DNA of 36,302 bases from Promethearchaeota archaeon (GTDB lineage: Archaea; Asgardarchaeota; Lokiarchaeia; Sigyniarchaeales; SOKP01), in contig JAHLWS010000010.1 in the NCBI GenBank assembly GCA_019057795.1, forward strand, positions 1 through 36,302. The letters are read 5' to 3'. Both the position numbers and the translations under genes were made by a program. Within the stretch, counting starts at the first letter, position 1, and each line of letters opens with the position of its first letter. Positions 14,694 to 34,263 of the stretch are shown here, in pieces. The notes beneath the pieces are model-generated. The model ran no database searches. It saw only the letters and a program-made list of their open reading frames with translations, and had not been told where the DNA came from.

Positions 14694-14870
14694 TTATTTA
14701 GATAAATTTTGATATTTTTTTCTCAGATAAGCCATTCTTATCTGATCTTCGCTTTCAATTACACCAGGGTAGGCATCTGAGATATCAAGCATCATCATGA
14801 GAGGGGCATTATCAGAATTCCAATCTTTATAATACTCTAATATCATATCAGGTTCTATTTTTCCGGCCAT
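14694..14870 (-). CDS. 58-aa microprotein (MAGKIEPDMILEYYKDWNSDNAPLMMMLDISDAYPGVIESEDQIRMAYLRKKYQNLSK), not in ORF track
   Basis: Open ATG..TAA frame; strong SD GGAGGTG (14881-14887) 10 nt upstream; convergent with dapL. Confidence 0.75.
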   Translation of the reverse strand: MAGKIEPDMILEYYKDWNSDNAPLMMMLDISDAYPGVIESEDQIRMAYLRKKYQNLSK

Positions 14871-17010: not shown

Positions 17011-17949
17011 ATGAATTCTAATGTTGTAAAAAAATCTGAAATTAAATACGAAAAAGCTACAAACATTCTTTGGAAAGTGTGGTGGTTTTGTTGGTATTTA
17101 TTAATTGTTCCTTCAGGTATTACAGCATTAGGTTATTTTATCTTCTTTTTTATTAGTCAAGATATTTATATTTCACTGGGTTTTTCTGTCCTTACATTTA
17201 TGTTTTCGATACTTTTTTTCTATAAATTTTTTGATAAATATAGAAATGAGCCCGTTTTTCTTAACCAAACTAATAATCCTACTTCAAGGATACATATTTT
17301 ATTTTTAATAACCATTTTTTCTTTAATAGTAACTCCTATTTTCGTGTTTATCACTCCTTCAGATTACTCTTTTGAATTATTACCTTTAATTTCTTTTTGC
17401 GTGCTCTATTTAATAGTTTTTTACTATTACTATTTCAAACCTATAGACTTCTTTAACGCCTCTATAGGCGAATTCAAGCACTCAATTAGCTTTTCTTTAG
17501 CATCCAAACAGCTTTACAACATTATTGTAATCTTAAATTTTGTTATTCATATTTTATTTCTCTCTTACACATTTTATACAAAACTTTCATGGTTGTTCGC
17601 GTTAGTTACAAATTTTATCTTTTATTTCGTCACACTATTATCTACCAAAACTATCCGTAGAAAAATCAATGATTCAATCAAAGAGAATAAAAAAATTTTG
17701 AAAGATTTGATTACATTTCATAAAAAATACTCAATTTCAATTCTTAGCTTAATTTTCGTTCTGTTAATCCAAATGCCTTTTGTTATAATTGGAATTTACA
17801 GTTTATCTGGACCAACTCCCACGCTGTTTGAATTAATAAATGCTTTCTTTTTATCCATGATGTTCTTTCTAATTTATTTGAAAATTAGAGTATATCTCGC
17901 TTTTTATTATAAAAAATCTCTAATGAGGTTATCCAAGAATGAAATCTGA
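17011..17949 (+). CDS. Polytopic membrane protein (about 8 TM), unknown function
   Basis: Long hydrophobic stretches in hairpin pairs; overlaps start of the next gene. Confidence 0.8.
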   Translation: MNSNVVKKSEIKYEKATNILWKVWWFCWYLLIVPSGITALGYFIFFFISQDIYISLGFSVLTFMFSILFFYKFFDKYRNEPVFLNQTNNPTSRIHILFLITIFSLIVTPIFVFITPSDYSFELLPLISFCVLYLIVFYYYYFKPIDFFNASIGEFKHSISFSLASKQLYNIIVILNFVIHILFLSYTFYTKLSWLFALVTNFIFYFVTLLSTKTIRRKINDSIKENKKILKDLITFHKKYSISILSLIFVLLIQMPFVIIGIYSLSGPTPTLFELINAFFLSMMFFLIYLKIRVYLAFYYKKSLMRLSKNEI

Positions 17950-20900
17950 TAAAGTTGAGGATAGTTTGCCTGAAGAGTTCGGTAAGTATCAGAAGTTAAA
18001 TCTAATTTTATCAATTTTAATTTTAGGGTTTATTATTTTATTCTCGATTTTGATAGAATTTCCGATACTTATCCTATTCTCGCTACTAATATTAATCATT
18101 ATCTCGTATTACGAGCAGAAGGCAAACTTTTGCCCAAAAAAATACAGTAAATATATTTTTTTAATTAATTCTTCGGGGATTTTTGCGACAATTGTTTTTT
18201 GGTTTGTGCCTTTGCCATTAAATATTCAATTTATAATATTGATTATAGGATTATACTTAATCTTAGAAATTTTTGCGATAAGAGGTTATTTCGTTAAAGA
18301 GAATGTTTTGATTGCTCAACATGTTTTAGCTGTTTCTAGTTTTGTCATGATAATTTACTCATTTTTCGATATTTTTTCTTTTATTTACATTGATTTTACA
18401 ACAGATCCTATTCTAATAATTTTTTCAGAATTTTTGCTACATACTTTAACGATTCTATCACTAACTTTAATCTCTTTTTATTACCTCTATGTGCGATACT
18501 TTCGAAAACATCCATGGGATAATTTTAATAGATGCATGATGATTTTAATTTTATTAATAGAATTAACATCATACATCGTAATTAATCTTAGAAATTATTT
18601 CTCATTAAGCATACCTTTATTTAGCAATGGTTTGATTTTGTCAACAATCTTATTTCCAGGTATTTTTTTGATATTTACTTTCATAAATTATTTGATTGGC
18701 GTTTTCTCATCAAGAACAACTCTTTCTTATAGTTACTACTCATGTTGGGGTTTAATGCTGTCTATTGGTCTTTCAATTATGTTTATTTTTGCAAGTAATC
18801 TGACAATTGTAATTTCCATTTTATTATTTTTCTCAATTTCTTCGTATTATCTATTGAAATTTGGGCAGAAAATCGAAAAAATAAGCGAAAGTTCAATAGT
18901 TAAGTTTACTCGTATTAATTCTTATTTTATTTTTATAGAGCTATTTTTCCTATTATTTTCTATATTTTTTGAGTTGTTTTCATATTTTGCACTATACGAT
19001 GATATTATTATTTCAGCATATGCGTCATTTATAGGAATAACCTTTCTAAATAACATAATTTTAAAGAAAAAATTAATCTCAGAATCGAACAGGGTTGTAA
19101 TAAACGAGCTTTCTTTAATATTTACATCCGTTTTAATTTTTTATTACTCTTTTCTATATTTTCTCGATTCTTTTTGGATTCTTATTTTTCCTTTTTTATT
19201 CTTTAGCATTTCATTTTATTTACCCCTAAAATATATACTAAACAAAACAACCCAACAAACCTTTATAAAAAGCTTAATAAAGCTAAACAGTGTTGTATTA
19301 TGTGCGTCATTACTCCTTATTCCAACGATATTTAACTTGCAATTAGTGTTATTAGGATACGCTTTCAATGCATTTAATGTCGCTAATTTTACATTATATA
19401 TTTTTTATGGAATTTTAGTTTTTATTCATAATTTTTTAAGACAACTCAAAATTAGAGAAAAAAGGAGAGAACTAATTGTTAAATTACAGATTATCATTGG
19501 ATTTATCGTTACAGGTACCACCATGTTCTACTATCCATATGTTTTGTTTAAAGACACTTCGTATTTAATAATTTTTCCATTGCTCTCTGCTTTAAGTTTC
19601 TTATTTATCCCTCTTATATTTTCTTATAAAAAAGAGTGTTTTAATACCAAATTAGTTAAAAAGACAATAATTCTGAATAGTATTCTATTTTGGAGCATCA
19701 TTATTTTTATACCGTATATAATTGGGTTAGAAATCGTTAGATTAGGGATGGCCGCTGATCCTATCTTAATTATTTTATTTTCTGTAATACTATTTTTTGT
19801 TTCTTTAAAATTCTTTGATCAGATTTCATCATATATAGAATTGAAAGAAGGAATGATTAATATTATTAAGATAATTCAACCAATTACTTGGTTTTTCATC
19901 AGTATTCTAATTTCTATAATCTTTTTCAATCTAAATTTGATCGTAACAATTACTTGGTTAAGAAATGTTATTTTTGCCGGCGCGCTTTTGTTATTTTTTG
20001 TTTTTAACAGTTACAATTTAGTTCTTTTAGAAGATTTAAAGCAATCAGTCTTTGAAGACGAAACAAGTAAGTTAGATTATTACAAGATTTACAAAATTTA
20101 TGAATTTAATAAAAATATTATAATTTTCGGCGTAAGCATTTCACTATCTCTTTTATTTATGTCAATCGTCCAAATGTTTAATTATAACCAATTTTTTATT
20201 GATATGGGTCCTCAATTATTAGGTTATACCCTCCTCGACATTGCCATATTTTTACTAATATTATTACTCGCTCTTAATGTAAGTGATAAACTGATAAAAA
20301 TCGACTTCGAAAGAGTTAAAGTTACTTCTGAATTGATTATATGGATAATTCTAAAATCTATTATATTATTTACTTTAGCCTTGTATCCTATTCAAATGTT
20401 GTTTTTCAATAAAATAGCACTATTAATTCTTGTTTTCGCCGTTTTAAGTCCCATTTCTCATTATTATTTAGAAAGAAAATTTTTTCTCTTAGAAAATACT
20501 CAATTAGCAATAAGAAAAAGCATAGGGGTCTTGTTTTTCTTATCTATTATTTGTCTTTCCATTGAAATTATTTGGAACATCTCTTCTATAATGTTAGTCC
20601 CGTATTTTAATCAAGAGATACTCATAATTCTTGTTTTCGGGAAAATATTTCTATTTTCAAATTATTATCTTCTACGATATAATTTTTTTACAGAAAGAGA
20701 ATCTGGGTTTCATATCTATAAACTATTTGGAATTTCGTTAGTTTTACTGATTTCATACTTATTACCTCTCTCATTAGCTTTCTTTTTACCCTTTATGATA
20801 TTTTTATTACAAAGAAACAGAAATTCCTATTTTCGCTTGTTTTTCTATTTAATACTAAGTATTATAACATTTATTGAAGCAACAGGGTTCATGGTTTCAT

Positions 20901-23900
20901 ATGAACTTCTACCTTCCCTTGAAGCATTATCGATTAGTATGTCGTCTACTATATACTTAATATCTTTAATATCTGTCTTTTTGACATCAATTATCTTGAA
21001 TTTAAAAAGAGAGAATAACTTTGAAAAATTCATACTTTATTTTTTATTATCTTTCCTTTCGTTTATTTTGTTATCACCCTATATATATCTAATATATAAC
21101 ACGACCACCTCATTATTCATTTTCTTGTGTTTGATGGGTATTTTCTATTATCGAAAAGAGGAGAAGCGATATAAATGGTTTATTAAACCTTGTGTCCTTC
21201 TTGCGATTTTTGATCTTATTAGTTTTCTTTCTTTTTCATTCTTTTTTAATGCTAATATATTTACATCCTGTAATCCGATTCTAAGTTTTACGTTAACTTT
21301 AAGCGTTTCTGGATTTGCGTTTGTATTTCTTTACAACGATTCGCCAAGATTGTTTCGAAAGAGATCTTTTTATGCTGTTTTAGCTTCAAATATAATTTCC
21401 TTTCCCGTATTTCTATATTTCTTCTTGATTTCAGTATACTCGCTTCCGTTATTCGATCTAATTATATTAATTATAAGTATTAATGTAGCAGTTGTTCTTT
21501 TTTATCTTTCAATAGCAATTTATCAATGGAAATTGTCATGGGCTATTTGGAAAATTGGTTATAGAATGTGGATAATATTTCCTATTGTAAATTATGCATT
21601 GATAAGCGAAGCATTTACAGGTATAAATGTATTCACAAACGCTTTAAATTTATTTGGTGTAAATTTATATGGTTCAAATCTTTTAGCGTTTATTCTATGC
21701 GTTCTTTTATCCTTACCGTTCTGGTATACATGGATTAAGAAACATTTCACTAATGTTTTATTTATTTCATGGGGCTTATGTTTATTTTTAATCGGTTGGT
21801 TTAGCCAAAATGCTTTTTTTGGAAACCTTGGTTTGAGCTATTTATCATTTATTGGAATCTCAGTTATATTACTTATGCCAATTCTAGTAAGGCTAAGATC
21901 GTGGAATATAGTATCTATCTTATGGATAATATTCTCAACAATCCTATTAATTTTTCTATTTTCTCTATTTGAAGCAGTAGGATTTCTAATTGAGCTAAAT
22001 TACCCTATAATTACAATAGTATGTGGACTACTTTTTATTACCCTCTCGTTTTTCCCTAATTTAAAAGCTCAGAAGAATGTTATATTAATACTGGCCTACT
22101 CTATTGCATTAACGGGAACTTTCTTATTAATATTTCATCTTATGTTTTTGTTAACCTTGCATCCATATATTTCTACAAATATAGCGTTAATTATTATGTC
22201 CTTTAGCTTATTTTCGTCAAGACTTCTAAAATTAAAACACACAATCTTTAATCGTTTAATTTCTACAATTTTAATAGTAAATTTCTCTTCGCTAACATAC
22301 TTTACTTTTAGCTTAATCCCCAATTTTGGATTGTTTCCATTATTTTTAGCTATATCAGTTTTCGGTGGGTCGTACTTCGTATTTAATTACTATAAATTAT
22401 TCTTCCCATCGAAAAAAATTATTCCATTAAGTATTCTTTCTTTTGGAATTTCATCTTCCGTGTCTTCAATTGTATTTTTGTTGTTTCCCGATTCACTTTT
22501 TATGGTTGCTGCAGTATTTATTACCGTAAATTTATTTTTAATTAATTTTTCATTAGGGAATTATCGATATATAATGTGGTATTTAATCCCTATTCCCTTC
22601 ACACTTTTTATATTACAGTTTTTATTTTATATTGAACTTTTTCAACCTCTTTTTCTGTTTACTTTAGCAGGATTAATTTTATACACTCTTATCTTCCAAA
22701 TCTTTATAATTCTCTTCAATAACGAAAAAGAAATTCCAATCGATTCAAAATCCTATAATATTATGAAATTTTTTGAGGATAAAAATCAAATTAAAGTTCT
22801 AAATTTAATATGCTTTTTATTAAATTCAACTTACTTTTCAGTTTTTATCGCATTTATTAGCCCATTTAACATATTCTACCAAATTCTCGAATTTTTGATA
22901 TTGTGGTCTATTTTGACATTACTCAGTGTACGATACGCCGAATCTTCGAAAATAGAAATTGATATCGAAAAATTTACCACATATTTAAAGAAATTCAGTT
23001 CAGTAGTAGCATTTCTATTATATCTTGAAATTTCTTTTTTTGTTTTTGGAATAGCTCTTGATTATTTAGGGTTGGGGTTGATTGAGAATGTTTTATTATC
23101 ACTTAGCTGTTTATTTATCCTGACATTTTTCGATTTCTATTTTATAAAGAATGTTAGTAAAAAGATAATCTATCCAATTCATATTTTTTCGTATATTTTA
23201 ATATCTATCTTTACATTTATTCTATTAAATCAATTCTTAACGATTGGTTTAGAAAGTCTCTTTTTGAACCTTGTAATTCTGTTAATTATGCAATTCTATA
23301 CTGAATACGCCATTTTTACATATTTAAATCAATTAGGTCGATATAACGCAAGTAAATTAAATGAAACCATGATTCAGATTAGAAATGTCCTAATAAATTT
23401 AGTAATATTTACTATAGGCTTTTACACATCTTCCTTAATAACTTCTTTACTAATAAGTTCAAATGAGATTTTTATAGGATTTCCGGCGTTATTTTTCTTT
23501 TTAATGATTCTTTCCGTCATTATGTTTGTCATAAACCATCTAATAAAGTTTAAGTTCAGAAATTCTATTTTATGGGGATTCTTTTTAATGTTTCAAGTTT
23601 GCTTTACGGCTTTCTATAGTTTATCAGTTTTACTTTTTACAAATTTTAATATATTTAATTCAATGTTTTTAGTTTTAATTAATACGCTCTTAGCTTTTTA
23701 TTCTGTTTTCTCAATCAAAAGAATTTTTAAAGAAAAAGTGAATGCTAAAACCATCCAAAATTCTTATTCTATTCTAATGGTATTATCGTATTTAGAAACA
23801 TCTATTTTATTTTACGGATTGTTTAATCTTTGGTTTGGAGTAATTGAAAGTTTCTTAGCATCACAAGTCGTTTTATTTTTTATAAGCATAATAGAGTTGA

Positions 23901-25564
23901 ATGTAGTAAAGAGAATTAGAAGTAAATACATATATATTGTTCATACAATTAGCTATTTCAACATTTCATGGTCAATATTTTCGTTAATATTTGTTTTATC
24001 AGGCTCTAATTTAGCCTTGCAAAGTCTTGCAATCGTGGTTTTTGCGTTAATGCAATTCTATACAAATTATTCTTATTACAATACTATGCGTAAATTTATG
24101 GCGGACAAAGAGGAATCGTTAGTAAAATGGAAAATATATCGAAAAAATCTCATAGGAATGGTAATTTATATAACATTATACAATTATATTCTTCAGACTC
24201 TTATTTTAACCAACATTGAACTTCAATTAATATTGTTTTTATCAAGCATTATAATTCATGCTTTAATGATTTTCGACAGGTTTTTTCTTAAATTTCTTGG
24301 TAAGTATTCAGTCTTTTTAATGACAGTTTCGTGGGTATTTATTTTTGGATTTTCAATTATTTATTTTGTAGGTTGGATTCCTCAGTATTCATTTTCTATT
24401 ATTCCTATTATAATTATTATATTATTGTTAGAGTTAGTTTACGGCTATGTATTAAACCTATTCGATTTTTGGGCTTTAATTAAAGAAAACAAATTAAAAT
24501 TTCGAAATTTTCTTATAATTGTTTCGTATATCAATTTCTGCTCTTGGCCACTGTACCATTTAACATTAGATTTATTAAATATTACTACGATGATTTTAAT
24601 CGTATTTGGAATTTTACTATTTTTAATGCAACTTGATAATGATAACCATTTAAATTCTATTAATCAAAAAACTAGAAAACAGGTTAATCGTTTCAGCCTG
24701 ATTGGTTTTGGTGCATTCGTCTCATTTGATGTGTATTTTGTATTAGATGTAATGGCTCAAACATCATTTTTGTTAAATATTTCAACTTCCCTATTAATTT
24801 TTATGGTATTTGTAGGCTTCTTAGTCAAACCCTTTAAAAAACGGAAACTCCTCTCCTTTGCTTATTGGGCGTTAATGGTAGCTTTAATAAGTATCATTTT
24901 TTACGACTTTTATTCATCTGGTTGGAGCTGGTCACTTTTAATTGTAGGTATTTTATTATACCCATTTATTTTCATGTTAGAGGAGTTAAAAGAATTCTTC
25001 AATAAAATAGTTGATAATTTGAGCGCATTATATCAAATTGTTAAGAACACCATTAAATCTTTAGTTCAAGGAGTAATTAAATTCTTGAGAGTTAATTTTA
25101 AAGTAATTCGTATTATTTTGACTTTATTATTAGGGGTATTTATGGGAATTCTTTTTTCAGATTTAATATTACACATTTTAAACCCATATCATTCATCCTT
25201 ATTAGCTATTGCTATTTCTGGTTTGTCTTATGGAATTATACCCTCACTGAAATCTGAAGACCTCGACGAAATTTTTAAGGAAAAAATGAAGAGATTCATT
25301 ACAATCTGGATAAGTATAACGATTTTTATTTTGCTTATTATAGTACCAGTCACTTTAAAAATATCGCTAATTTTTACATTTTTCCTTATAATATTATCAA
25401 TTTTAGGGCTTGGAGCTATTCTATTATTATTTATATACCGTTTAGAAGAAAGAGAGAGAGTTTCAATAAAATGGAGATTTTACACCTTAATATTTTTCTT
25501 TATATTACTTGGTATTGAAATTTTAATAGGAGCAGCTTTATATCTTGGCGGTTTTGGGTTCTAA
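17939..25564 (+). CDS. Giant (2541 aa) polytopic membrane protein with internal repeats
   Basis: 7.6-kb uninterrupted ORF, F/I/L-dominated throughout with short K/E-rich loops; repeated segments visible. Confidence 0.88.
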   Translation: MKSDKVEDSLPEEFGKYQKLNLILSILILGFIILFSILIEFPILILFSLLILIIISYYEQKANFCPKKYSKYIFLINSSGIFATIVFWFVPLPLNIQFIILIIGLYLILEIFAIRGYFVKENVLIAQHVLAVSSFVMIIYSFFDIFSFIYIDFTTDPILIIFSEFLLHTLTILSLTLISFYYLYVRYFRKHPWDNFNRCMMILILLIELTSYIVINLRNYFSLSIPLFSNGLILSTILFPGIFLIFTFINYLIGVFSSRTTLSYSYYSCWGLMLSIGLSIMFIFASNLTIVISILLFFSISSYYLLKFGQKIEKISESSIVKFTRINSYFIFIELFFLLFSIFFELFSYFALYDDIIISAYASFIGITFLNNIILKKKLISESNRVVINELSLIFTSVLIFYYSFLYFLDSFWILIFPFLFFSISFYLPLKYILNKTTQQTFIKSLIKLNSVVLCASLLLIPTIFNLQLVLLGYAFNAFNVANFTLYIFYGILVFIHNFLRQLKIREKRRELIVKLQIIIGFIVTGTTMFYYPYVLFKDTSYLIIFPLLSALSFLFIPLIFSYKKECFNTKLVKKTIILNSILFWSIIIFIPYIIGLEIVRLGMAADPILIILFSVILFFVSLKFFDQISSYIELKEGMINIIKIIQPITWFFISILISIIFFNLNLIVTITWLRNVIFAGALLLFFVFNSYNLVLLEDLKQSVFEDETSKLDYYKIYKIYEFNKNIIIFGVSISLSLLFMSIVQMFNYNQFFIDMGPQLLGYTLLDIAIFLLILLLALNVSDKLIKIDFERVKVTSELIIWIILKSIILFTLALYPIQMLFFNKIALLILVFAVLSPISHYYLERKFFLLENTQLAIRKSIGVLFFLSIICLSIEIIWNISSIMLVPYFNQEILIILVFGKIFLFSNYYLLRYNFFTERESGFHIYKLFGISLVLLISYLLPLSLAFFLPFMIFLLQRNRNSYFRLFFYLILSIITFIEATGFMVSYELLPSLEALSISMSSTIYLISLISVFLTSIILNLKRENNFEKFILYFLLSFLSFILLSPYIYLIYNTTTSLFIFLCLMGIFYYRKEEKRYKWFIKPCVLLAIFDLISFLSFSFFFNANIFTSCNPILSFTLTLSVSGFAFVFLYNDSPRLFRKRSFYAVLASNIISFPVFLYFFLISVYSLPLFDLIILIISINVAVVLFYLSIAIYQWKLSWAIWKIGYRMWIIFPIVNYALISEAFTGINVFTNALNLFGVNLYGSNLLAFILCVLLSLPFWYTWIKKHFTNVLFISWGLCLFLIGWFSQNAFFGNLGLSYLSFIGISVILLMPILVRLRSWNIVSILWIIFSTILLIFLFSLFEAVGFLIELNYPIITIVCGLLFITLSFFPNLKAQKNVILILAYSIALTGTFLLIFHLMFLLTLHPYISTNIALIIMSFSLFSSRLLKLKHTIFNRLISTILIVNFSSLTYFTFSLIPNFGLFPLFLAISVFGGSYFVFNYYKLFFPSKKIIPLSILSFGISSSVSSIVFLLFPDSLFMVAAVFITVNLFLINFSLGNYRYIMWYLIPIPFTLFILQFLFYIELFQPLFLFTLAGLILYTLIFQIFIILFNNEKEIPIDSKSYNIMKFFEDKNQIKVLNLICFLLNSTYFSVFIAFISPFNIFYQILEFLILWSILTLLSVRYAESSKIEIDIEKFTTYLKKFSSVVAFLLYLEISFFVFGIALDYLGLGLIENVLLSLSCLFILTFFDFYFIKNVSKKIIYPIHIFSYILISIFTFILLNQFLTIGLESLFLNLVILLIMQFYTEYAIFTYLNQLGRYNASKLNETMIQIRNVLINLVIFTIGFYTSSLITSLLISSNEIFIGFPALFFFLMILSVIMFVINHLIKFKFRNSILWGFFLMFQVCFTAFYSLSVLLFTNFNIFNSMFLVLINTLLAFYSVFSIKRIFKEKVNAKTIQNSYSILMVLSYLETSILFYGLFNLWFGVIESFLASQVVLFFISIIELNVVKRIRSKYIYIVHTISYFNISWSIFSLIFVLSGSNLALQSLAIVVFALMQFYTNYSYYNTMRKFMADKEESLVKWKIYRKNLIGMVIYITLYNYILQTLILTNIELQLILFLSSIIIHALMIFDRFFLKFLGKYSVFLMTVSWVFIFGFSIIYFVGWIPQYSFSIIPIIIIILLLELVYGYVLNLFDFWALIKENKLKFRNFLIIVSYINFCSWPLYHLTLDLLNITTMILIVFGILLFLMQLDNDNHLNSINQKTRKQVNRFSLIGFGAFVSFDVYFVLDVMAQTSFLLNISTSLLIFMVFVGFLVKPFKKRKLLSFAYWALMVALISIIFYDFYSSGWSWSLLIVGILLYPFIFMLEELKEFFNKIVDNLSALYQIVKNTIKSLVQGVIKFLRVNFKVIRIILTLLLGVFMGILFSDLILHILNPYHSSLLAIAISGLSYGIIPSLKSEDLDEIFKEKMKRFITIWISITIFILLIIVPVTLKISLIFTFFLIILSILGLGAILLLFIYRLEERERVSIKWRFYTLIFFFILLGIEILIGAALYLGGFGF

Positions 25565-25594
25565 ATACTCCAAACGAAAGGTTAACCGAAAAAT

Positions 25595-25759
25595 TTAGTT
25601 AAGATTCTTCTCTTTCCATTCCTGTAAAAACTTTTTAAAGTTGTTTATCGGAATTCCTATCGAATTTATTTTTTCTCGATTACATTTAACTCTTTCCTTT
25701 GAAGGCTGGTTATTATGGAAACTTAGTTCCCAATCAAAATAAGAACTTGATTTTGACAT
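25595..25759 (-). CDS. 54-aa microprotein A (MSKSSSYFDWELSFHNNQPSKERVKCNREKINSIGIPINNFKKFLQEWKEKNLN)
   Basis: Open ATG..TAA frame; clear paralogy with adjacent 25925..26098. Confidence 0.8.
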   Translation of the reverse strand: MSKSSSYFDWELSFHNNQPSKERVKCNREKINSIGIPINNFKKFLQEWKEKNLN

Positions 25760-25788
25760 GATAAAAGTATTTTATGTTTTTACTTATT

Positions 25789-25817
25789 TGTAAATTGTAT
25801 AAAAAAATGTATTTAAA
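25789..25817 (-). promoter_or_regulatory. Promoter-like element of microprotein A, duplicated at 26140-26168
   Basis: 24/29 nt identical to 26140-26168; begins with TTTAAA TATA-like box on the minus strand. Confidence 0.55.
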
Positions 25818-25924
25818 CCTCTTTAGATTTTCAATGAATTTCGTACTAAAAGAACATAAATATATAAAAAAGCAAAAAATAAGGATGAAAAATAAAAAAG
25901 CGTTAGATAATAAGTTAAATTATA

Positions 25925-26098
25925 TTAGGAAAGGTTTCTATTCTTCCATTTTCTCAAATAATTTTCAAAGTCATCGTCAGCAATCCCAATTGAATTTAAT
26001 CTTTTTTTTTTTGTAAACATAATTTTTGAAGTGTTATCTGTGTTATTACCTTTAAAACCTAACGACCAATCATAATAAGAAACTACTTTTGATGACAT
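25925..26098 (-). CDS. 57-aa microprotein B (MSSKVVSYYDWSLGFKGNNTDNTSKIMFTKKKRLNSIGIADDDFENYLRKWKNRNLS)
   Basis: Open ATG..TAA frame; shares SY[YF]DWxLxF and NSIGI..F..[FY]L..WK..NL with microprotein A. Confidence 0.8.
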   Translation of the reverse strand: MSSKVVSYYDWSLGFKGNNTDNTSKIMFTKKKRLNSIGIADDDFENYLRKWKNRNLS

Positions 26099-26139
26099 AA
26101 TTTAATTTTAACATTAAACAAAAATAAAGCAATACGGAG

Positions 26140-26168
26140 TGTAAATTTACTAAAAAATTGTTTTTAAA
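26140..26168 (-). promoter_or_regulatory. Promoter-like element of microprotein B
   Basis: Near-copy of 25789-25817. Confidence 0.55.
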
Positions 26169-26303
26169 ATTGTATTAGAAAGCGTGTACTATAATCTAAT
26201 AATTAAAAAATTCATGCAAAAAAGTACAAAAATCTCTATTATTAACATTTATAAATTCTAAGATTAATTTAATTAAATATTAGTAAATATTTTAGTGAAA
26301 ATA

Positions 26304-26851
26304 ATGGAAGAAAATAGAGAAAATAAAACCTTAAATGTTAAAGATTGGATTATCCTTAGTACAACTATGATTGCTGCTGTTTTAACAATTCTAGCTTTAG
26401 TATGGCAAGTACGACCTTCAAGTGGTATTGTTTCTGCAACATTCTTGTTAATGCTTTCATTTATTTTTTTTTTTGAAATTCGGTATCAACTAACTCAAAA
26501 GCACACTATGAAACAAGAGCAGGGAAAATGCCCTAAGAACAAATTAATAGGTTTGTGACATTTGCGGAATATTCGTTCGGTTTCGGATTTACTTTAGTTA
26601 TAACAGCATTTTCTATACTTGGTTATAAATACCTATTAGATTTCGTAGGACGAGAATTAATCGTCTTATTCTTGCCAATAGTTTTCCTATTAACAACATG
26701 GGTAATAATTTTCATTTATAATTGGATAAATTATTCAGGAAAAATATTGAAAAGCCTAAGAAGTTTAAAGCGCAATCTTTGGATATTATTAGAGATAGCA
26801 TGTTTAGTATTTATAATATTTGACTATTTCGAAATAATTATAATTCCCTAA
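26304..26851 (+). pseudogene. Disrupted membrane protein gene (track ORFs 26295..26558 and 26555..26851 are probably one gene)
   Basis: Frame changes at the T11 run 26464-26474. The downstream frame reads NSVSTNSKAHYETRAGKMP*EQINRFVTFAEY with in-frame TAA 26534-26536. Confidence 0.6.
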
Positions 26852-26883
26852 TTCTTTTTTTATTTCAGAAACTAATTATTTAA

Positions 26884-27900
26884 TTATTCAACTATACTGT
26901 AATATATTCCCGGTCTACCTACACCCTCACTCTTAATGTGTTCTTTAATAACTCCTTCTCTCACTAAAAAATTTAAGATCTCTTTTAATCTGGTTCCTCC
27001 AATACCAGAAGATTTACTCAGATCTCTGGTTTTTATCATGTTTCTTTCATCAATTACGCCTAAAACTTCTTTAAATGATCTTGGGTAGCCTATTTTAATT
27101 CTTTTTTCTACAGTTTTAATTTCTAACATCATCTTTGCTTGTTTAGCAAATGGACCGCGAAACCCATCAAAATGAAAAACCTCATCTTCTTTAAAAATTA
27201 TGGAATTTAGGTAATCTTCATCAATAAGCATATTTCCCATATTAACAATTTCGTCATTAAACCTAATTAATTGACAAGTTCTTTCTTTTGTTTGAATTAT
27301 CTCAGTTCCGGTTCTTTTTAATGTATTGGTAATTTCTTCAAGATAGTTTGGATATTTTTCAAAATCTAAATCCGAGAAATAAAGCCTTATCTGAACGCCC
27401 CTCATGAATGCTTGATATAATGCGGGTTCCAATCTTTTTAAAAAAGAAATAGGCAAGGAGCTCATAATTATCTCGTGAAGCGTGTCTTCTATGAGTATAT
27501 AATAATTCTCAAAAGCTAAACTAAGATTGGAATAATGATAAAAACTTACATCTCGAATACATCTTCCCATAGCACTTTCTTGAATTTTTAATTCTTCATC
27601 TAATTTATTAATATTTTCTTGAAATGCGTTAAACTTCTTATTGATTAATTCTGTTAAAGCAATTCTAGGGTTTATCTTAATATAAATTCGAGGTTTTGAA
27701 TCTGATGATTCAATTAAACCTTTTTCTTCCAAAATCATTAAATTATGGTGTACTTGTGTATAAGAATAATTTAAGTCCCTTTTTATATCGTTTATAGTTC
27801 CAAATTTATGAGTTAAAAGATAATGGTATATTTTTATTTGAATATCGGTTAAACCAATTTCATTTAAAAACCTAGTAATTGTGCTTGTGATCATAATCAT
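26884..27900 (-). CDS. TrmB-family transcriptional regulator with an additional C-terminal winged HTH
   Basis: IGLTDIQIKIY..L..LEEKGLIES..PRIY..INP N-terminal HTH; RGVQIRL in effector domain; C-terminal KTRDLSKSSGIGGTRLKEILNFLVREGVI..GRP. Confidence 0.82.
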   Translation of the reverse strand: MIMITSTITRFLNEIGLTDIQIKIYHYLLTHKFGTINDIKRDLNYSYTQVHHNLMILEEKGLIESSDSKPRIYIKINPRIALTELINKKFNAFQENINKLDEELKIQESAMGRCIRDVSFYHYSNLSLAFENYYILIEDTLHEIIMSSLPISFLKRLEPALYQAFMRGVQIRLYFSDLDFEKYPNYLEEITNTLKRTGTEIIQTKERTCQLIRFNDEIVNMGNMLIDEDYLNSIIFKEDEVFHFDGFRGPFAKQAKMMLEIKTVEKRIKIGYPRSFKEVLGVIDERNMIKTRDLSKSSGIGGTRLKEILNFLVREGVIKEHIKSEGVGRPGIYYSIVE

Positions 27901-27931
27901 GAAAACAAAAAATAAGGTTATTTCTTTGTAT

Positions 27932-27999
27932 AATTAATTTGTGACATATGCTTAAATATTTTTTGTACAGTAAATAGGTTAATATTGTCACAATTAATT
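27932..27999. promoter_or_regulatory. Inverted repeat in the divergent trmB promoter region
   Basis: AATTAATTTGTGACA (27932-27946) ... TGTCACAATTAATT (27986-27999). Confidence 0.5.
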
Positions 28000-28040
28000 T
28001 AATACTATAATAACCTGAAAAAAATTTAAGTGATAATAAA

Positions 28041-28172
28041 ATGGCTCAATGTAAAGATTGTAAATTTTATAAACCTATTGATGAAACTAAAGGAGACTGC
28101 TTCGGACACGAAGTTCCAGCAACTTTAGATACGGAAAAGTGTCCTACAAATAGTTTTCAACCAAGAGAGTAA
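28041..28172 (+). CDS. 43-aa Cys4 protein resembling BssC/TutF (benzylsuccinate synthase gamma-like small Fe-S) proteins
   Basis: MAQCKDCKFYKPIDETKGDCFGHEVPATLDTEKCPTNSFQPRE: CxxCxFY..GxC..C..F.PR spacing; 15 nt from the next gene. Confidence 0.72.
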   Translation: MAQCKDCKFYKPIDETKGDCFGHEVPATLDTEKCPTNSFQPRE

Positions 28173-28187
28173 AAGGAGTGAGTAAAG

Positions 28188-28808
28188 ATGCCATCTAAAA
28201 TAGATTTCAAGAGAACTATGAAAGGGTTTTATCAACCGAGCTCTAAAGAAGTGGTGCAGGTTGATGTCCCTGAGATGCAGTTCTTGATGATAGATGGAAT
28301 GGGTTCACCAGGTGATTCTAAAGAATATAATGATGCGCTTGCCGTACTTTATCCCGTAGCATTTAAAACAAAATTTTTAAGTAAAGCAAAAGGCAAGGAT
28401 TATGTTGTTCCTCCTCTAGAAGGCTTATGGTGGGCAGATAACATGAATGACTTTACTGAAGGGAATCGGGATAAATGGAAATGGACGATGATGATAATGC
28501 AACCTGATTGGACAACTCAAGACATAATAAATGAAGTGATAAAAATAACAAAAGACAAAAAACCTGAACTATCAGAACTGCTTCCTAAACTCCGATTAGA
28601 GCAATATAAAGAAGGCAAAGCGGCTCAAATAATGCACATCGGTCCTTATTCAGAGGAAGGTCCTACGATTGCGAAAATTCATAATTTCATTAAGGATAAA
28701 GGAAATACATTCGACGGACACGAGAAAAAACATCATGAAATCTATCTAAGCGACCCGAGAAAAGCAAATCCTACCACAATGAAAACTGTTATAAGACAAC
28801 CTTTCTAA
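28188..28808 (+). CDS. GyrI-like small-molecule-binding domain protein
   Basis: FLMIDG.G.P, YVVPPLEGLWW, WTMMIMQP, HIGPYSEE, HHEIYLSDPR, KTVIRQP; SD GGAGTG. Confidence 0.88.
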   Translation: MPSKIDFKRTMKGFYQPSSKEVVQVDVPEMQFLMIDGMGSPGDSKEYNDALAVLYPVAFKTKFLSKAKGKDYVVPPLEGLWWADNMNDFTEGNRDKWKWTMMIMQPDWTTQDIINEVIKITKDKKPELSELLPKLRLEQYKEGKAAQIMHIGPYSEEGPTIAKIHNFIKDKGNTFDGHEKKHHEIYLSDPRKANPTTMKTVIRQPF

Positions 28809-28816
28809 ATATTTTT

Positions 28817-31219
28817 TTAAAAACATAATAAATCTTTTTGAATAGATCTTCTATTAAAATCAGATTTTAATAATTCTTCGAGTTCAGGGAATTTAAAAGG
28901 AAAAATATTCTCAAAAGCTCTTTTTAGCAATTCGATATATTTCTTCTTATCGTACTGATGTTTTTTTTCGTCGTAAAGATCTGAGAGAATCACCTTCTTT
29001 TCGGGGAATTCTGGATCAGCATCGGCATTGAGTATAATATAGCGAACATTTTTACCGGGAGTCACTACCACACCTGATCTTTCTAGTTGTCTTGCAGCAA
29101 CAGCCTGATACGAGTTTACCTTGTATTGTGAAGGTTTTCTGGAAATCCTTTGGCGAATCGTAAGTTCTTCTCGCGAAACTTCACCGGTCTCTATCTTGTC
29201 CACATATCGATAGAGCATCTTCTTTACTTTTGGGATTCTTCTCATAAATTCTTCGATGGTTTTTGCGCCTTGAAATATGTCGATAAACGCGTACTGAGCG
29301 TCTTTAACGATTTTTGGCACGTCTCTGCGTCGAACTTCAATCCCCCTTACTTTTGTCTCTCCATCGCTCTTAATACCCCAGTAGTGGCTCAGTGCTGGAA
29401 TGTCCGGTTCTGCGCGAGATGGAAGAAAAACGATAAAATTGTACCTTCCGTCCCAGCTCATTGGAATACCCACTTGTTCAGTTATTTCTTCAGCAATTTT
29501 TTTAGTTACCATTTCGAACTCCTCGGGAGACCTACTTTTTGTATCTTTGAGCCAAATTGAATCCACAATTCCGTGAATAACTTTGCAACCATGTTCTTCT
29601 GCTATCTCCGCAGAGCGCATAAGGAATTCACGAGCAAACGCGCAAACCGTTTGATGAGCTTCGATCTTTCCAAAACGAGCATTTTTAAACCCTAAATACC
29701 CGAAACTTACTACGAGTACCCATTTTAGAGCAATATCGGTGAATTTATAACGAAGGTTCCCAGTTTTACGGACATACGCTTTGTACTTTAATCTTTTTGA
29801 TAAAGGCAGACTTATTGATTTCGATATGATTCCTTGTCTTTTTGAACATATATGAAAGTCCAATCCTGGAACTTTTACACCTGTACCGTCGTCTTTACAA
29901 CACTTGCAATTAATGGTTTCCGAAGAAATATTAAAGTTTGCCATTAAAGAAGGATACATAGAAGAAAAGTCTAGTTCTACCACTTGTTCAAAAACTCCAA
30001 TGATCGGTTCGAATATATGGCCTCCACGGTCGCTTCTAATTAGGTCCATTCCAGTATTGAAACCTTCTGGATTTTTCTTGAATGGAGGAATTAAATGGTC
30101 AAGTTTATAAGCGTTATAAAATTGAATCGACTGGAGTGCCCCCCCGATAGTTATACGACTTAATCTTTGGAGCGAGATTCGCGATATACGGGCGACTTCA
30201 ATAACGCCTGGAATATTTCCTTCCGTAAAATGGAGACTGGCGTAAGTTGTTGTGTCCAAATGAAATCTGCCACTTAAATAGACCTGAGTCTTTGAACGTC
30301 GTCTTATTATTCCATAAGACATATAATGATCTGAACCACCAGAAAGCTCGAAAAGACAGTTTACCAATGGCTTTTTATCCCGAGAAAGGTAAAGATCTTT
30401 TGTTACTCGATTCTCTGAAGCCCGAGCAACTAGATACGGAAGGAGAAATTCATCCCCATTTTGGGTAAGTATTATATCAGGATCGAGATGTTCGATTACT
30501 TTGCTTATAGTCTTCAAGGTTTCCGCTTCGTCTGCTTTCTCGATCAATATTTTTCGTTTTATGTATCCATCTGCTCGTGGAACATTGCTCTCGTCGTTTT
30601 CAACAATACTGATTTCAGCATGAGAAATGGGATCGTTATAATATGGTCTTATCCCTTGATGCTGAATTTTTACATCTAACCAAACGGCTTTTAGTGGAGG
30701 CAAATCGTAGAATAACTTTTCGTTGTCATCTTGTAAATCTAGAGAAACAAGGCGTAAAATATTACTTCTCTTGTCTTTGCCCTTTTCAATTTTAACTTTG
30801 AAACGACAGAAAGACATAGGGAATATGTCATTGACATAGAAATACATCTGAGTAATAGGAAGATCCGTATTATGCAAGATAAAAAGTCCTATTCTGTCAA
30901 TCTCTTTAATTGTTTTCTTAAATACCGAGGGTTTCGTTACAGTGACACCAAGAACTTTCGTTTTATCGTGATCTTCGAGTTTTGCATACTTTTCACAGAT
31001 CCGCACCTCTTTTACATTTAGATTTTGAGTAAGGATATATTTCAATCGCTTTAAGTCGTTACCGACTTCATTTCTGGGCACTGCAAAAAATTCAGGACAG
31101 AATTCTTGGTATATTTTTATTACCTTCTGCTCTTTTGAGGTTTTTACCCAAAGGATAACTCCTTCGCTAAAAGTAGATACATCTAAAAGCCACCCGTCAA
31201 AAACATTCTGTGAGTCCAA
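28817..31219 (-). CDS. polB2: Family B DNA polymerase, PolB2 (group G2) type with degenerate catalytic/exonuclease motifs
   Basis: DRGG, DFSSMYPS, NISSETINCKCC, LKWVLVVSFGYLGFKNARFG.IEAH, HGIVDS in place of YGDTDS, RGIEVRRRD. Confidence 0.92.
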   Translation of the reverse strand: MDSQNVFDGWLLDVSTFSEGVILWVKTSKEQKVIKIYQEFCPEFFAVPRNEVGNDLKRLKYILTQNLNVKEVRICEKYAKLEDHDKTKVLGVTVTKPSVFKKTIKEIDRIGLFILHNTDLPITQMYFYVNDIFPMSFCRFKVKIEKGKDKRSNILRLVSLDLQDDNEKLFYDLPPLKAVWLDVKIQHQGIRPYYNDPISHAEISIVENDESNVPRADGYIKRKILIEKADEAETLKTISKVIEHLDPDIILTQNGDEFLLPYLVARASENRVTKDLYLSRDKKPLVNCLFELSGGSDHYMSYGIIRRRSKTQVYLSGRFHLDTTTYASLHFTEGNIPGVIEVARISRISLQRLSRITIGGALQSIQFYNAYKLDHLIPPFKKNPEGFNTGMDLIRSDRGGHIFEPIIGVFEQVVELDFSSMYPSLMANFNISSETINCKCCKDDGTGVKVPGLDFHICSKRQGIISKSISLPLSKRLKYKAYVRKTGNLRYKFTDIALKWVLVVSFGYLGFKNARFGKIEAHQTVCAFAREFLMRSAEIAEEHGCKVIHGIVDSIWLKDTKSRSPEEFEMVTKKIAEEITEQVGIPMSWDGRYNFIVFLPSRAEPDIPALSHYWGIKSDGETKVRGIEVRRRDVPKIVKDAQYAFIDIFQGAKTIEEFMRRIPKVKKMLYRYVDKIETGEVSREELTIRQRISRKPSQYKVNSYQAVAARQLERSGVVVTPGKNVRYIILNADADPEFPEKKVILSDLYDEKKHQYDKKKYIELLKRAFENIFPFKFPELEELLKSDFNRRSIQKDLLCF

Positions 31220-31222
31220 CTT

Positions 31223-31498
31223 CTACTCTTTTCTCTTTATTATTTCCTCTATTTCAATAATCTTTTTTTCCAACGACCCAATTTTCTTTTCTTGCTCAAT
31301 CGCAAACGAAATGAAAAGAATTTCTGAAAGCATAGGGCGAGCGCTTAAACTGCCGGCATCCGCATGAATTCTCGCAAAGTTCATTAATTTATCAAATATT
31401 TTTTGATCTTCTGGCCTAAGCGCTCTTTTATAGTCCTTCCAGCTTTCGATCTCGTGTTCAAGCGCAGGACGAAAGCTTGGTACGGTTCTACCACACAT
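31223..31498 (-). CDS. PolB2-associated small helical protein (PPB2/arCOG07300-like)
   Basis: GRTVPSFR..W..YKRALR.EDQKIFD motif directly upstream of polB2. Confidence 0.85.
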   Translation of the reverse strand: MCGRTVPSFRPALEHEIESWKDYKRALRPEDQKIFDKLMNFARIHADAGSLSARPMLSEILFISFAIEQEKKIGSLEKKIIEIEEIIKRKE

Positions 31499-31665
31499 TT
31501 TACTTCAATTTTCTTTTTAGTTTTTCAAGCAAACCCAGAAGGGTAGTCTTCTGAAACATTAAAAAAAATATACTTCGAAAATTTTCTAATTTTCTATCTA
31601 AAAAAATAATATATAGAACTTTAACATTCTAAGATTATAGTGAAAATTTAATTATTGGATGAGAT

Positions 31666-33125: not shown

Positions 33126-33884
33126 TTAGGAAAACCAGCAATCTAACGTCATGTTTTTCATTGACTTTGCTAAGTTCTTTTTTGGAGCGCGTGGCTTCCA
33201 CTTTAAAAGGCGGTTTTCAGGCAAAAAAGGATGCTGAACTAAAACATATTCGGTATATCGCTCGTCTTCGTTTATCAATGCTAATACACTTCCGAAGTGG
33301 GAGAGAATTTTTCCGCCATTAGGTCTATATAGAGAATATTCGTTTAGAGGAGCCGTTAGGACGATGAGTGGTCTTGTTTTAGAGAGAATCGTTTTAATCC
33401 CGTTAATAGCTCTCAGTAAATCCTCAAACATCTGCTTTTCGTAACTCTGAAACAATGTAGTAATACCAGAAATTAAAACAACTTTGACATGCTCAAGCTT
33501 AGAGAGCCTATTTTCTAAAAGCTCTACCATTTGATCCCAAATAAACGCGCGGGCAATAAGAATGTTCTCTAACACTTTCCGAGGCGATAAATTTTGGGAA
33601 ACAGCAAACTTGCTTACGTTATATGGGTTAAAACGGTTATTTGCGTCAATGAAAGCAACTTTTATTTCTTCTCCTAAACCTCCATTATTAAAAGATTTTT
33701 GAGCGATAACCGCAGTGGTCAATAGAATGTTCGCAAGTTTTTTTTTATCGCCATAAAGTAGATAAACTAAGTTTTTATGAAAGCCACCGCCTCCCAATAA
33801 CTCGTCTAGCGTTGAATCTCCGCTCGAAACTAAAGGAGTTCTCTTGTTTTTTCTATAAAAATTAAACCCCGAATTAAACGACAT
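33126..33884 (-). CDS. Inactivated RadA/RecA-like protein (iRadA) typical of PolB2 modules
   Basis: SSGDSTLDELLGGG, FIDANNRFNPY, LENILIARAF..QM; Walker A degenerate (YGDKKKLAN). Confidence 0.85.
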   Translation of the reverse strand: MSFNSGFNFYRKNKRTPLVSSGDSTLDELLGGGGFHKNLVYLLYGDKKKLANILLTTAVIAQKSFNNGGLGEEIKVAFIDANNRFNPYNVSKFAVSQNLSPRKVLENILIARAFIWDQMVELLENRLSKLEHVKVVLISGITTLFQSYEKQMFEDLLRAINGIKTILSKTRPLIVLTAPLNEYSLYRPNGGKILSHFGSVLALINEDERYTEYVLVQHPFLPENRLLKWKPRAPKKNLAKSMKNMTLDCWFS

Positions 33885-34263
33885 TACTTAAACTGATGAA
33901 TCCCTCAAAAAAAAAGTGGGTTACTCCGACAATTTTCTAAAATTTGCTACAAACATAAATAAATTCCTTAAGATAATTACTCAAGCTAGAAGAGAAATTC
34001 TCTTTTAAGGTAAAAGCGTTTCATGGAGACGGAGGGAGGAAAGTAGAAGTAAAAATAAAATAAGATAGATAATTTCGAGCTTTTGATGTGTCGACAAAAA
34101 TCATTGCAGCTATTTAACAGAATTTAAATTTTCGAAGTTCAACCTTTTCAAGCAAATATTCTAAATATATGATCACTAATTCAAAACTTTATAACTAATA
34201 TCGTCAGTATTAATTATTAACAACTTTTTTTAACTAAAATTGTAAAATTGATGTGAAATTAAA

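Follow-up and report, generated by a model that had tools for sequence, protein, structure and literature searches.

We describe two tandem microprotein genes, A and B, on the minus strand of a 36,302-nucleotide (nt) stretch of DNA from a Promethearchaeota archaeon (assembly GCA_019057795.1, contig JAHLWS010000010.1, positions 1 to 36,302 of the forward strand), hereafter the window. Both are real genes under purifying selection, and they belong to an undescribed microprotein family that is restricted to one family of uncultured Asgard (Promethearchaeia) archaea. The stable neighbour of the locus across that host family is the iRadA-PPB2-PolB2 module, and the promoter of B shares its architecture with promoters of DNA-repair genes. 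On genomic grounds we lean towards the view that B would be a small protein accessory to, and regulated together with, a gene set for DNA repair and damage tolerance around PolB2, iRadA, PPB2 and a HerA-like ATPase. Our confidence in any particular physical partner is much lower.

In the mechanism we propose, B would be the original gene of the locus, placed behind the translesion ("mutasome") module iRadA-PPB2-PolB2 in the same orientation, and would most likely be switched on together with the genes for iRadA, PPB2-PolB2 and the HerA-like ATPase. The protein is probably a small helical-hairpin accessory factor that would contact a protein of the repair set, or DNA, through two conserved helices. 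A would be an old tandem duplicate that has lost the promoter box shared by these genes.

Genes A and B and their distribution

Gene B (25925-26098, minus strand; 57 amino acids (aa), isoelectric point (pI) 9.75) appears to be the ancestral, locus-defining copy, and A (25595-25759, minus strand; 54 aa, pI 9.5) its old tandem paralog. The two proteins align over their full length with 41% identity and 67% positives (BLASTP, E=3e-13). The conserved columns of a 51-sequence family alignment form an N-terminal block (N block), SY[YF]DWxLxF, and a C-terminal block (C block), NS[IL]G...WKxxNL. The preliminary description of this DNA, made from the letters alone, had reported two minus-strand open reading frames (ORFs) of 54 and 57 aa with a shared bipartite signature; the coordinates and the alignment blocks agree with it. 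It had also called the genes hidden, which holds for the ORF track on which it was based but not for public collections, where both A and B are already called as genes and annotated "hypothetical protein".

The claim that these are genes under selection is borne out by their orthologs. A single-sequence search recovered intact frames of 50-65 aa in 34 of the 36 genomes of the window's genus. The median ratio of nonsynonymous to synonymous substitution rates (dN/dS, by Nei-Gojobori, variable loop included) is 0.31 for B orthologs (n=29) and likewise 0.31 for A orthologs (n=9). No RNA family was found by Rfam over positions 25000-27000. A 58-aa ORF at 14694-14870 was considered as a distant family member and rejected (1.3 bits against the family profile).

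A profile built from 51 members detected the microprotein in 12 of the 13 genera of one GTDB family (119 of 134 genomes). Sampling across the phylum recovered it from 59 of the 68 genomes included from that family and from none of 232 Asgard genomes in 29 other families. Run against 1.84 billion representative proteins, the profile retrieved 190 clusters (E<=0.001), of which very few fall outside 50-70 aa. Known families offer no relatives: Pfam gave no family for A or B at E<=10, a sequence-profile search of the PDB gave nothing better than E 0.8, Foldseek found no match in the PDB for the models of B or of the D-type paralogs described below, and the ESM Atlas held no neighbour for B. A search of a 5.8-billion-protein set for longer or fused relatives was empty, and a fused form of 151-156 aa emerged later from weak genome hits. 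Thus, the earlier impression of an unrecognised family stands, and the homolog search across Asgard genomes confines it, among the genomes searched, to a single GTDB family. One metagenome-assembled genome labelled as a Nanopelagicaceae bacterium (locus L134, DATKTW010000160.1) holds a microprotein with 67% identity, and is probably misbinned or mislabelled.

The PolB2 module and the promoter of B

Upstream of B on the same strand, the window encodes a PolB2-type family-B DNA polymerase (28817-31219, minus strand; Pfam DNA_pol_B and an exonuclease domain; C-terminus ...QKDLLCF), a PPB2-like small helical protein of 91 aa (31223-31498, minus strand) and iRadA (33126-33884, minus strand). The 91-aa protein has no Pfam family, and its position and size fit PPB2 (PMC11791011). 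iRadA, an inactivated RadA, has a partial Pfam Rad51 match, lacks the GKT/S Walker A motif and has a C-terminus resembling a PCNA-interacting protein (PIP) motif. The PolB2 module (PolB2, PPB2 and iRadA) was described by Timinskas et al. (2025; PMC11791011), together with an in-silico model of a mutasome of three subunits. PolB2 modules are damage-inducible translesion synthesis units in Sulfolobales (PMC11791011, PMC8764526), and PolB2 operons are reported to be damage-inducible (PMC11791011).

Orthologs of PolB2 were identified in all 13 genera of the GTDB family. Where microprotein and PolB2 lie on one contig (77 genomes), the two are within 10 kb of each other in 73, and the microprotein is downstream of PolB2 on the same strand in 71. 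The gap between PolB2 and B is 0.12-0.33 kb in six genera; it measures 120-272 nt in genus g27 (6/6 genomes), 174-214 nt in three of the four g29 genomes, and 120-196 nt in g26, g19 and g24. The two genes are divergent and about 450 nt apart in g22. Apparent co-loss of PolB2 and B in three genomes (G032, G010 and G151) was set aside as uninformative, the region being split over contig ends or wholly missing.

The promoter of B (26120-26153, minus strand) comprises box 1 (26144-26153), box 2 (26134-26141) and a TATA-like element (26120-26128), with the ATG 55 nt after the start of box 1. The same architecture precedes B orthologs in 12 genera: box 1 (TYAGAAAAT-like), 3-4 bases, box 2 (CTCTGT-like), about 5 bases, and a TATA-like element TTTATTTT. 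The layout has fixed spacing in 45 orthologs, and in 38 of these the distance from the box-2 anchor to the ATG is exactly 43 nt. As a whole the B motif is unique in the genome, scoring 41 bits against 18 for the next best site. The TATA box is centred approximately 26 nt before the ATG, so that by the usual geometry of archaeal promoters B is probably transcribed from its own promoter as a leaderless mRNA.

Box 1 recurs before genes of the repair set. In 15 of 18 loci, drawn from many genera, it starts 55-56 nt before the ATG of iRadA, and TATA is placed 25 nt on from its first base; the box of iRadA in the window is at 33922-33940 and starts 56 nt before the ATG. The same box precedes PPB2-PolB2, farther from the start codon (window site 31571-31589). 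In 26 of 30 loci, box 1 is also present, along with a CTCTT box, before a HerA-like (DUF87) ATPase gene, which is single-copy in all 13 genera. In the genome of the window (G000) this gene is at C70:39453-40976 (plus strand; L163, L169). No NurA, Mre11 or Rad50 gene was found among the annotated ORFs flanking the HerA-like ATPase gene, which stands alone.

To compare these promoters we used a matrix made from iRadA promoters only (10 nt each for box 1 and TATA; box start anywhere from -60 to -50) and, as background, 4142 upstream regions of the window's genome. The 45 B promoters score a median of 10.1 bits with this matrix, a value reached by 0.12% of the 4142 regions. B of the window scores 13.5 bits with its box at -55, the second-highest value in the genome after iRadA itself. 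Promoters of the A, C and D types score negative. Since its box stands at the same distance from TATA and ATG as in the iRadA and HerA-like promoters, B is most likely co-induced with the repair genes.

A looser bipartite scan of the genome also caught a type IA topoisomerase-like gene (G000 C71:59271, minus strand), and the box alone precedes a SNF2 helicase gene with DUF3670 (G000 C45:20463-23660, plus strand). Both are candidate members of the same regulon. Defining the regulon by the whole 33-nt B motif was rejected, as that motif is unique in the genome and only the shorter box with its geometry is common to other genes. A second box-like site (12.3 bits) occurs at 34117-34136 (minus strand), about 250 nt upstream of iRadA and towards the gene of an AMP-binding enzyme, with a similar site in locus L062. 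Elsewhere in G000, a repeated 20-nt sequence resembling box 1 and box 2 (16/20 identical) was identified at C78:201696 (plus), C68:61063 (minus) and C11:8070 (plus). It precedes IS605 TnpB-like genes at the C78 and C68 sites, and no ORF was found after the C11 site. We do not count these IS605 element ends as instances of the box, the match being probably due to chance.

The region upstream of A is different. The preliminary description had proposed a duplicated promoter from a 29-nt element that is 24/29 identical before both genes (26140-26168 for B and 25789-25817 for A, both minus strand). The match is real and of modest significance, as 3 of 300 dinucleotide shuffles reach 24 identities, and its B half takes in box 1 and reaches two bases into box 2, thus covering a regulatory box conserved in 12 genera. 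In the A element, however, the key AG of box 1 is missing and there is no box 2, and A instead has a different conserved box of 12 nt (25840-25851, minus strand), which is specific to second copies and is found also before the second copy of locus L059 in g27. From these sequences A appears to have lost the shared box and to carry a different promoter.

The damage-responsive element of Sulfolobales invites comparison. There, Orc1-2 activates damage-inducible genes through the element ANTTTC, which sits 23-55 nt ahead of their start codons (PMC6061795). Box 1 of B, at -55 to -46, holds ATTTTC on the opposite strand, a motif short enough for the likeness to have arisen by chance, and the published 20-nt consensus shares the spacing TAG-N9-ACTC with the B promoter (PMC6061795). 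The orientation is opposite, however, and the central bases differ. No Orc1/Cdc6 gene was found among the annotated genes of the window. The box of B thus bears a resemblance only to the Orc1-2 element, which we take as a lead.

Several observations weigh against a role of B in the repair set. The shared box is short and AT-rich, and its loose 10-mer version occurs 919 times in the genome. With a promoter of its own, B is not simply a fourth cistron of the operon, and the published analysis of polB2 neighbourhoods makes no mention of such a gene. Genus g18 keeps a PolB2, which is more divergent (60% identity) and is followed by a methyltransferase gene, and has no microprotein; thus, the polymerase module works without it. 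Paralogs of A and B occur in many unrelated contexts, with most secondary paralogs of g28 and the D-types lying among unrelated or unannotated genes. On these grounds the microprotein could have a function unrelated to DNA repair, the proximity to PolB2 and the box reflecting common ancestry of the region or a general regulator. We hold this to be improbable: within the genome, almost no genes other than iRadA, B and the HerA-like gene combine a box at -55 with a TATA element 25 nt downstream of its start, and this layout persists from genus to genus, with every other neighbour changing.

The giant gene and other neighbours

As the preliminary description had observed, gene A converges on the 3' end of a gene encoding a giant membrane protein of 2541 aa (17939-25564, plus strand; no Pfam family); 30 nt separate the two stops. 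That description went on to suggest a small regulatory or ligand peptide family, possibly linked to the giant protein, and A and B might accordingly be read as its partners, regulators or ligands. The arrangement is indeed kept in nearly all loci of the window's genus (g1), even where the C-terminus of the giant protein is at 32-50% identity, and the giant gene also adjoins the microprotein in g21 (locus L066). Beyond these two genera the link dissolves. In g22 the giant gene is approximately 2 kb off, and in g28, g27, g29, g26, g19, g24 and g25 no giant homolog is adjacent, the convergent gene there being a GH20 hydrolase, a PAS histidine kinase or another gene. None of the paralog contexts examined contains a giant-like gene, and the promoter of B matches those of DNA-repair genes.

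The proteins themselves do not resemble secreted ligands. Both are basic (pI 9.5-9.8) and, by reading, have neither a signal peptide nor a hydrophobic N-terminus or other hydrophobic segment, and no modifying enzyme was identified among the annotated neighbours. Features of ribosomally synthesized and post-translationally modified peptides or of secreted peptides were not found in A, B or the family alignment: there is no conserved Cys, and both ends are conserved, with no pattern of leader plus core. We therefore regard the giant gene as a neighbour, not part of the unit, and its adjacency as local synteny; a functional link to it is very unlikely.

Between B and PolB2 lies a variable cassette (26295-28808, mixed strands) composed of p87 and p98 (plus), a TrmB-like gene (minus) and a GyrI-like gene (plus), as judged with Pfam. 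The p87 and p98 genes overlap (26295-26851, plus strand) and encode small membrane proteins with no Pfam family. Within the window's genus the gene order is fixed as giant, (A), B, p87/p98, TrmB-like, GyrI-like, PolB2. The cassette is present in g1, g28, g25 and g21 and absent in g27, g29, g26, g19 and g24, where B is directly adjacent to PolB2, and it looks like an insertion between B and PolB2 in the four genera that have it.

In a sister family, one with cultured relatives, a different ORF of 70-76 aa was identified downstream of PolB2 on the same strand (L141:2007-2237, minus strand, genome G050; L142:1940-2152, minus strand, genome G055). It is similar in both genomes and ends in an LPxWFLxK-like motif; none was found in G044.

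Family anatomy, paralogs and possible roles

Members of the family are small basic proteins (median pI 9.6) predicted to have two amphipathic aromatic helices with a variable lysine-rich loop between them. The layout is N block, loop and C block, and the loop measures 15-50 residues in most members and 15 to about 190 overall. The AlphaFold2 (AF2) model of B, made from the family alignment, has a helix at residues 8-16, a disordered loop and a helix at 41-56; the C-terminal helix is modelled with a predicted local distance difference test score (pLDDT) of about 90, and the overall predicted template-modelling score is 0.36. The D-type is modelled by AF2 as a helical hairpin.

We distinguish four subtypes and a long form. 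Subtype B is the copy at the PolB2-linked locus, and subtype A is the tandem second copy. Subtype C comprises dispersed copies at other genomic sites (contig C71 carries the G000 copy), and subtype D proteins are 45-49 aa long and lack the first half of the N block. In the long form (151-156 aa), a domain of approximately 100 aa with the pattern HxC...CxH comes after the N block, the loop and a degenerate C block; the protein is encoded at L199:1681-2148 (minus strand, genome G018) and also at L200, L201 and L202. In the metagenomic protein P0148 (234 aa), an inserted flavodoxin-like domain of about 190 aa separates the N block from the C block. Two further proteins, P0080 and P0146, have the C block in two copies.

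The tree groups the B orthologs of the window's genus in one clade (support 98/90), seven of the nine A orthologs in a second (97/84) and the C copies in a third (96/80). Given these separate clades, the tandem duplication is at least as old as the genus. A orthologs were identified in nine genomes of the genus. In two species (G026 and G020) A is cut off by a rearrangement: at the breakpoint loci (L006:1216-1332, minus; L008:417-533, plus) the gene is identical to that of the window to about codon 14 and then runs into unrelated sequence. No match for the C-terminus of the giant protein was found at L006 or L008, where the end of the giant gene is missing. Since A is truncated in these species it must be dispensable there. 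We conclude from these comparisons that A is probably an old tandem duplicate, still under purifying selection and dispensable in some species.

One possibility for B is that it is a tiny DNA-binding regulator of the repair set, and not a servant of the polymerase, built as a degenerate helix-turn-helix (HTH) or as a dimeric hairpin with a basic loop. As read from the alignment, the C block has a hydrophobic-Gly-hydrophobic turn followed by a K/W/N-rich helix, which is typical of an HTH turn and recognition helix. The loop is rich in lysine and the proteins are basic, and B has a strictly conserved promoter of its own and lies beside the TrmB-like regulator gene in several genera. However, even at E<=10 Pfam offers no DNA-binding model, HTH or otherwise, AF2 gives two helices and not three, and the stretch that would have to form helix 2 ranges in length from 15 to about 190 residues. 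No sequence or fold relatives were found in the PDB, and we consider this role unlikely.

The contexts of the secondary copies give a mixed signal. Some C-type paralogs are convergent with RadA (five loci), the C copy of the window's genome sits among genes for an RPA-like OB-fold protein, FEN1 and a CoiA-like nuclease, and another C type adjoins a CoiA-like nuclease. Other paralogs are found beside ribosomal, metabolic or unannotated genes.

Archaea have small proteins that bind the sliding clamp PCNA, such as the Thermococcales inhibitor of PCNA, with lengths of about 50-60 aa. The family could by analogy consist of short-motif PCNA adaptors, an archaeal analogue of such proteins. They are alike in size, and a canonical-looking PIP motif, QxK[ILV]x[DE][FY][FY], is present in 20 of 27 D-type sequences, with its Q and K invariant in the 24 D-types that were aligned. 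It resembles the C-terminal PIP boxes of the genome's own FEN1-like and other proteins, and the genome has a single PCNA (G000 C82:130391-130756). Clamp-binding motifs are also used by PolB2 mutasomes (PMC11791011). Against this, neither A nor B nor any of the 150 best family representatives contains the motif Qxx[ILM]xx[FY][FY], and A and B have no sequence relative among solved structures. The D-type motif, which was noticed after the fact, is packed within the long helix 2-19 of the modelled hairpin (mean pLDDT 73) and not in a free tail, and this weakens the PIP reading. Furthermore, the C-termini of both iRadA and PolB2 are themselves PIP-like. We also considered whether the N block of A and B might be a variant PIP motif and rejected the idea, as the register is inconsistent between subtypes. 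Altogether, we rate a family of PCNA adaptors as quite unlikely.

The long form suggests a different comparison. The ESM Atlas groups its C-terminal domain with SWIM-type domains (TM 0.83 by query), although the Pfam SWIM model does not match it. In the Shu complex, SWIM proteins are binding partners of Rad51 paralogs (PMC6316741), and iRadA has the Rad51 fold. Unlike Shu2/SWS1 (PMC6316741), which have CxC...CxH, the long form has HxC...CxH, and A and B have no such domain. The apparent SWIM-like fusion is suggestive, no more.

Our preferred reading of B as a small accessory protein of the repair set finds a parallel in PPB2, which is likewise a small helical protein from the polB2 neighbourhood and has been proposed to contact PolB2, iRadA or DNA through short conserved segments (PMC11791011). 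The microprotein nevertheless belongs to a different family, has its own promoter and occurs in one host family, and the PPB2-like gene is present separately in the window. No Pfam or profile link was found between A or B and PolB2, PPB2 or iRadA, and the iRadA gene, too, is separate. Given the PPB2 precedent, a small accessory gene accompanying a translesion polymerase is of a known kind, and the family itself is new. UmuD is another precedent for a small accessory gene that travels with a translesion polymerase.

More speculatively, B could be a stoichiometric extra subunit or adaptor of a Promethearchaeial PolB2 mutasome, seated on the RadA-fold protein or on the clamp. The family would then be one of modular two-helix adaptors with paralogs at other repair hubs (the PIP-like D-type and the SWIM fusion), and the box would mark the first Asgard DNA-damage regulon, possibly the counterpart of the Orc1-2 element. 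We offer this extended version tentatively and think it improbable as a whole.

Asgard archaea are the closest prokaryotic relatives of eukaryotes, and little is known about the regulation of their DNA-damage tolerance. To this the present analysis adds a lineage-specific conserved microprotein that travels with the PolB2 module, and a conserved promoter element common to iRadA, PPB2-PolB2, the HerA-like ATPase and the microprotein, from which a testable regulon hypothesis follows. It also depicts a small gene family that appears to have spread by duplication and to have gained, in different members, a PIP-like motif, a SWIM-like domain and an inserted flavodoxin-like domain. Even if the link to repair should fail, what remains is a well-supported orphan microprotein family.

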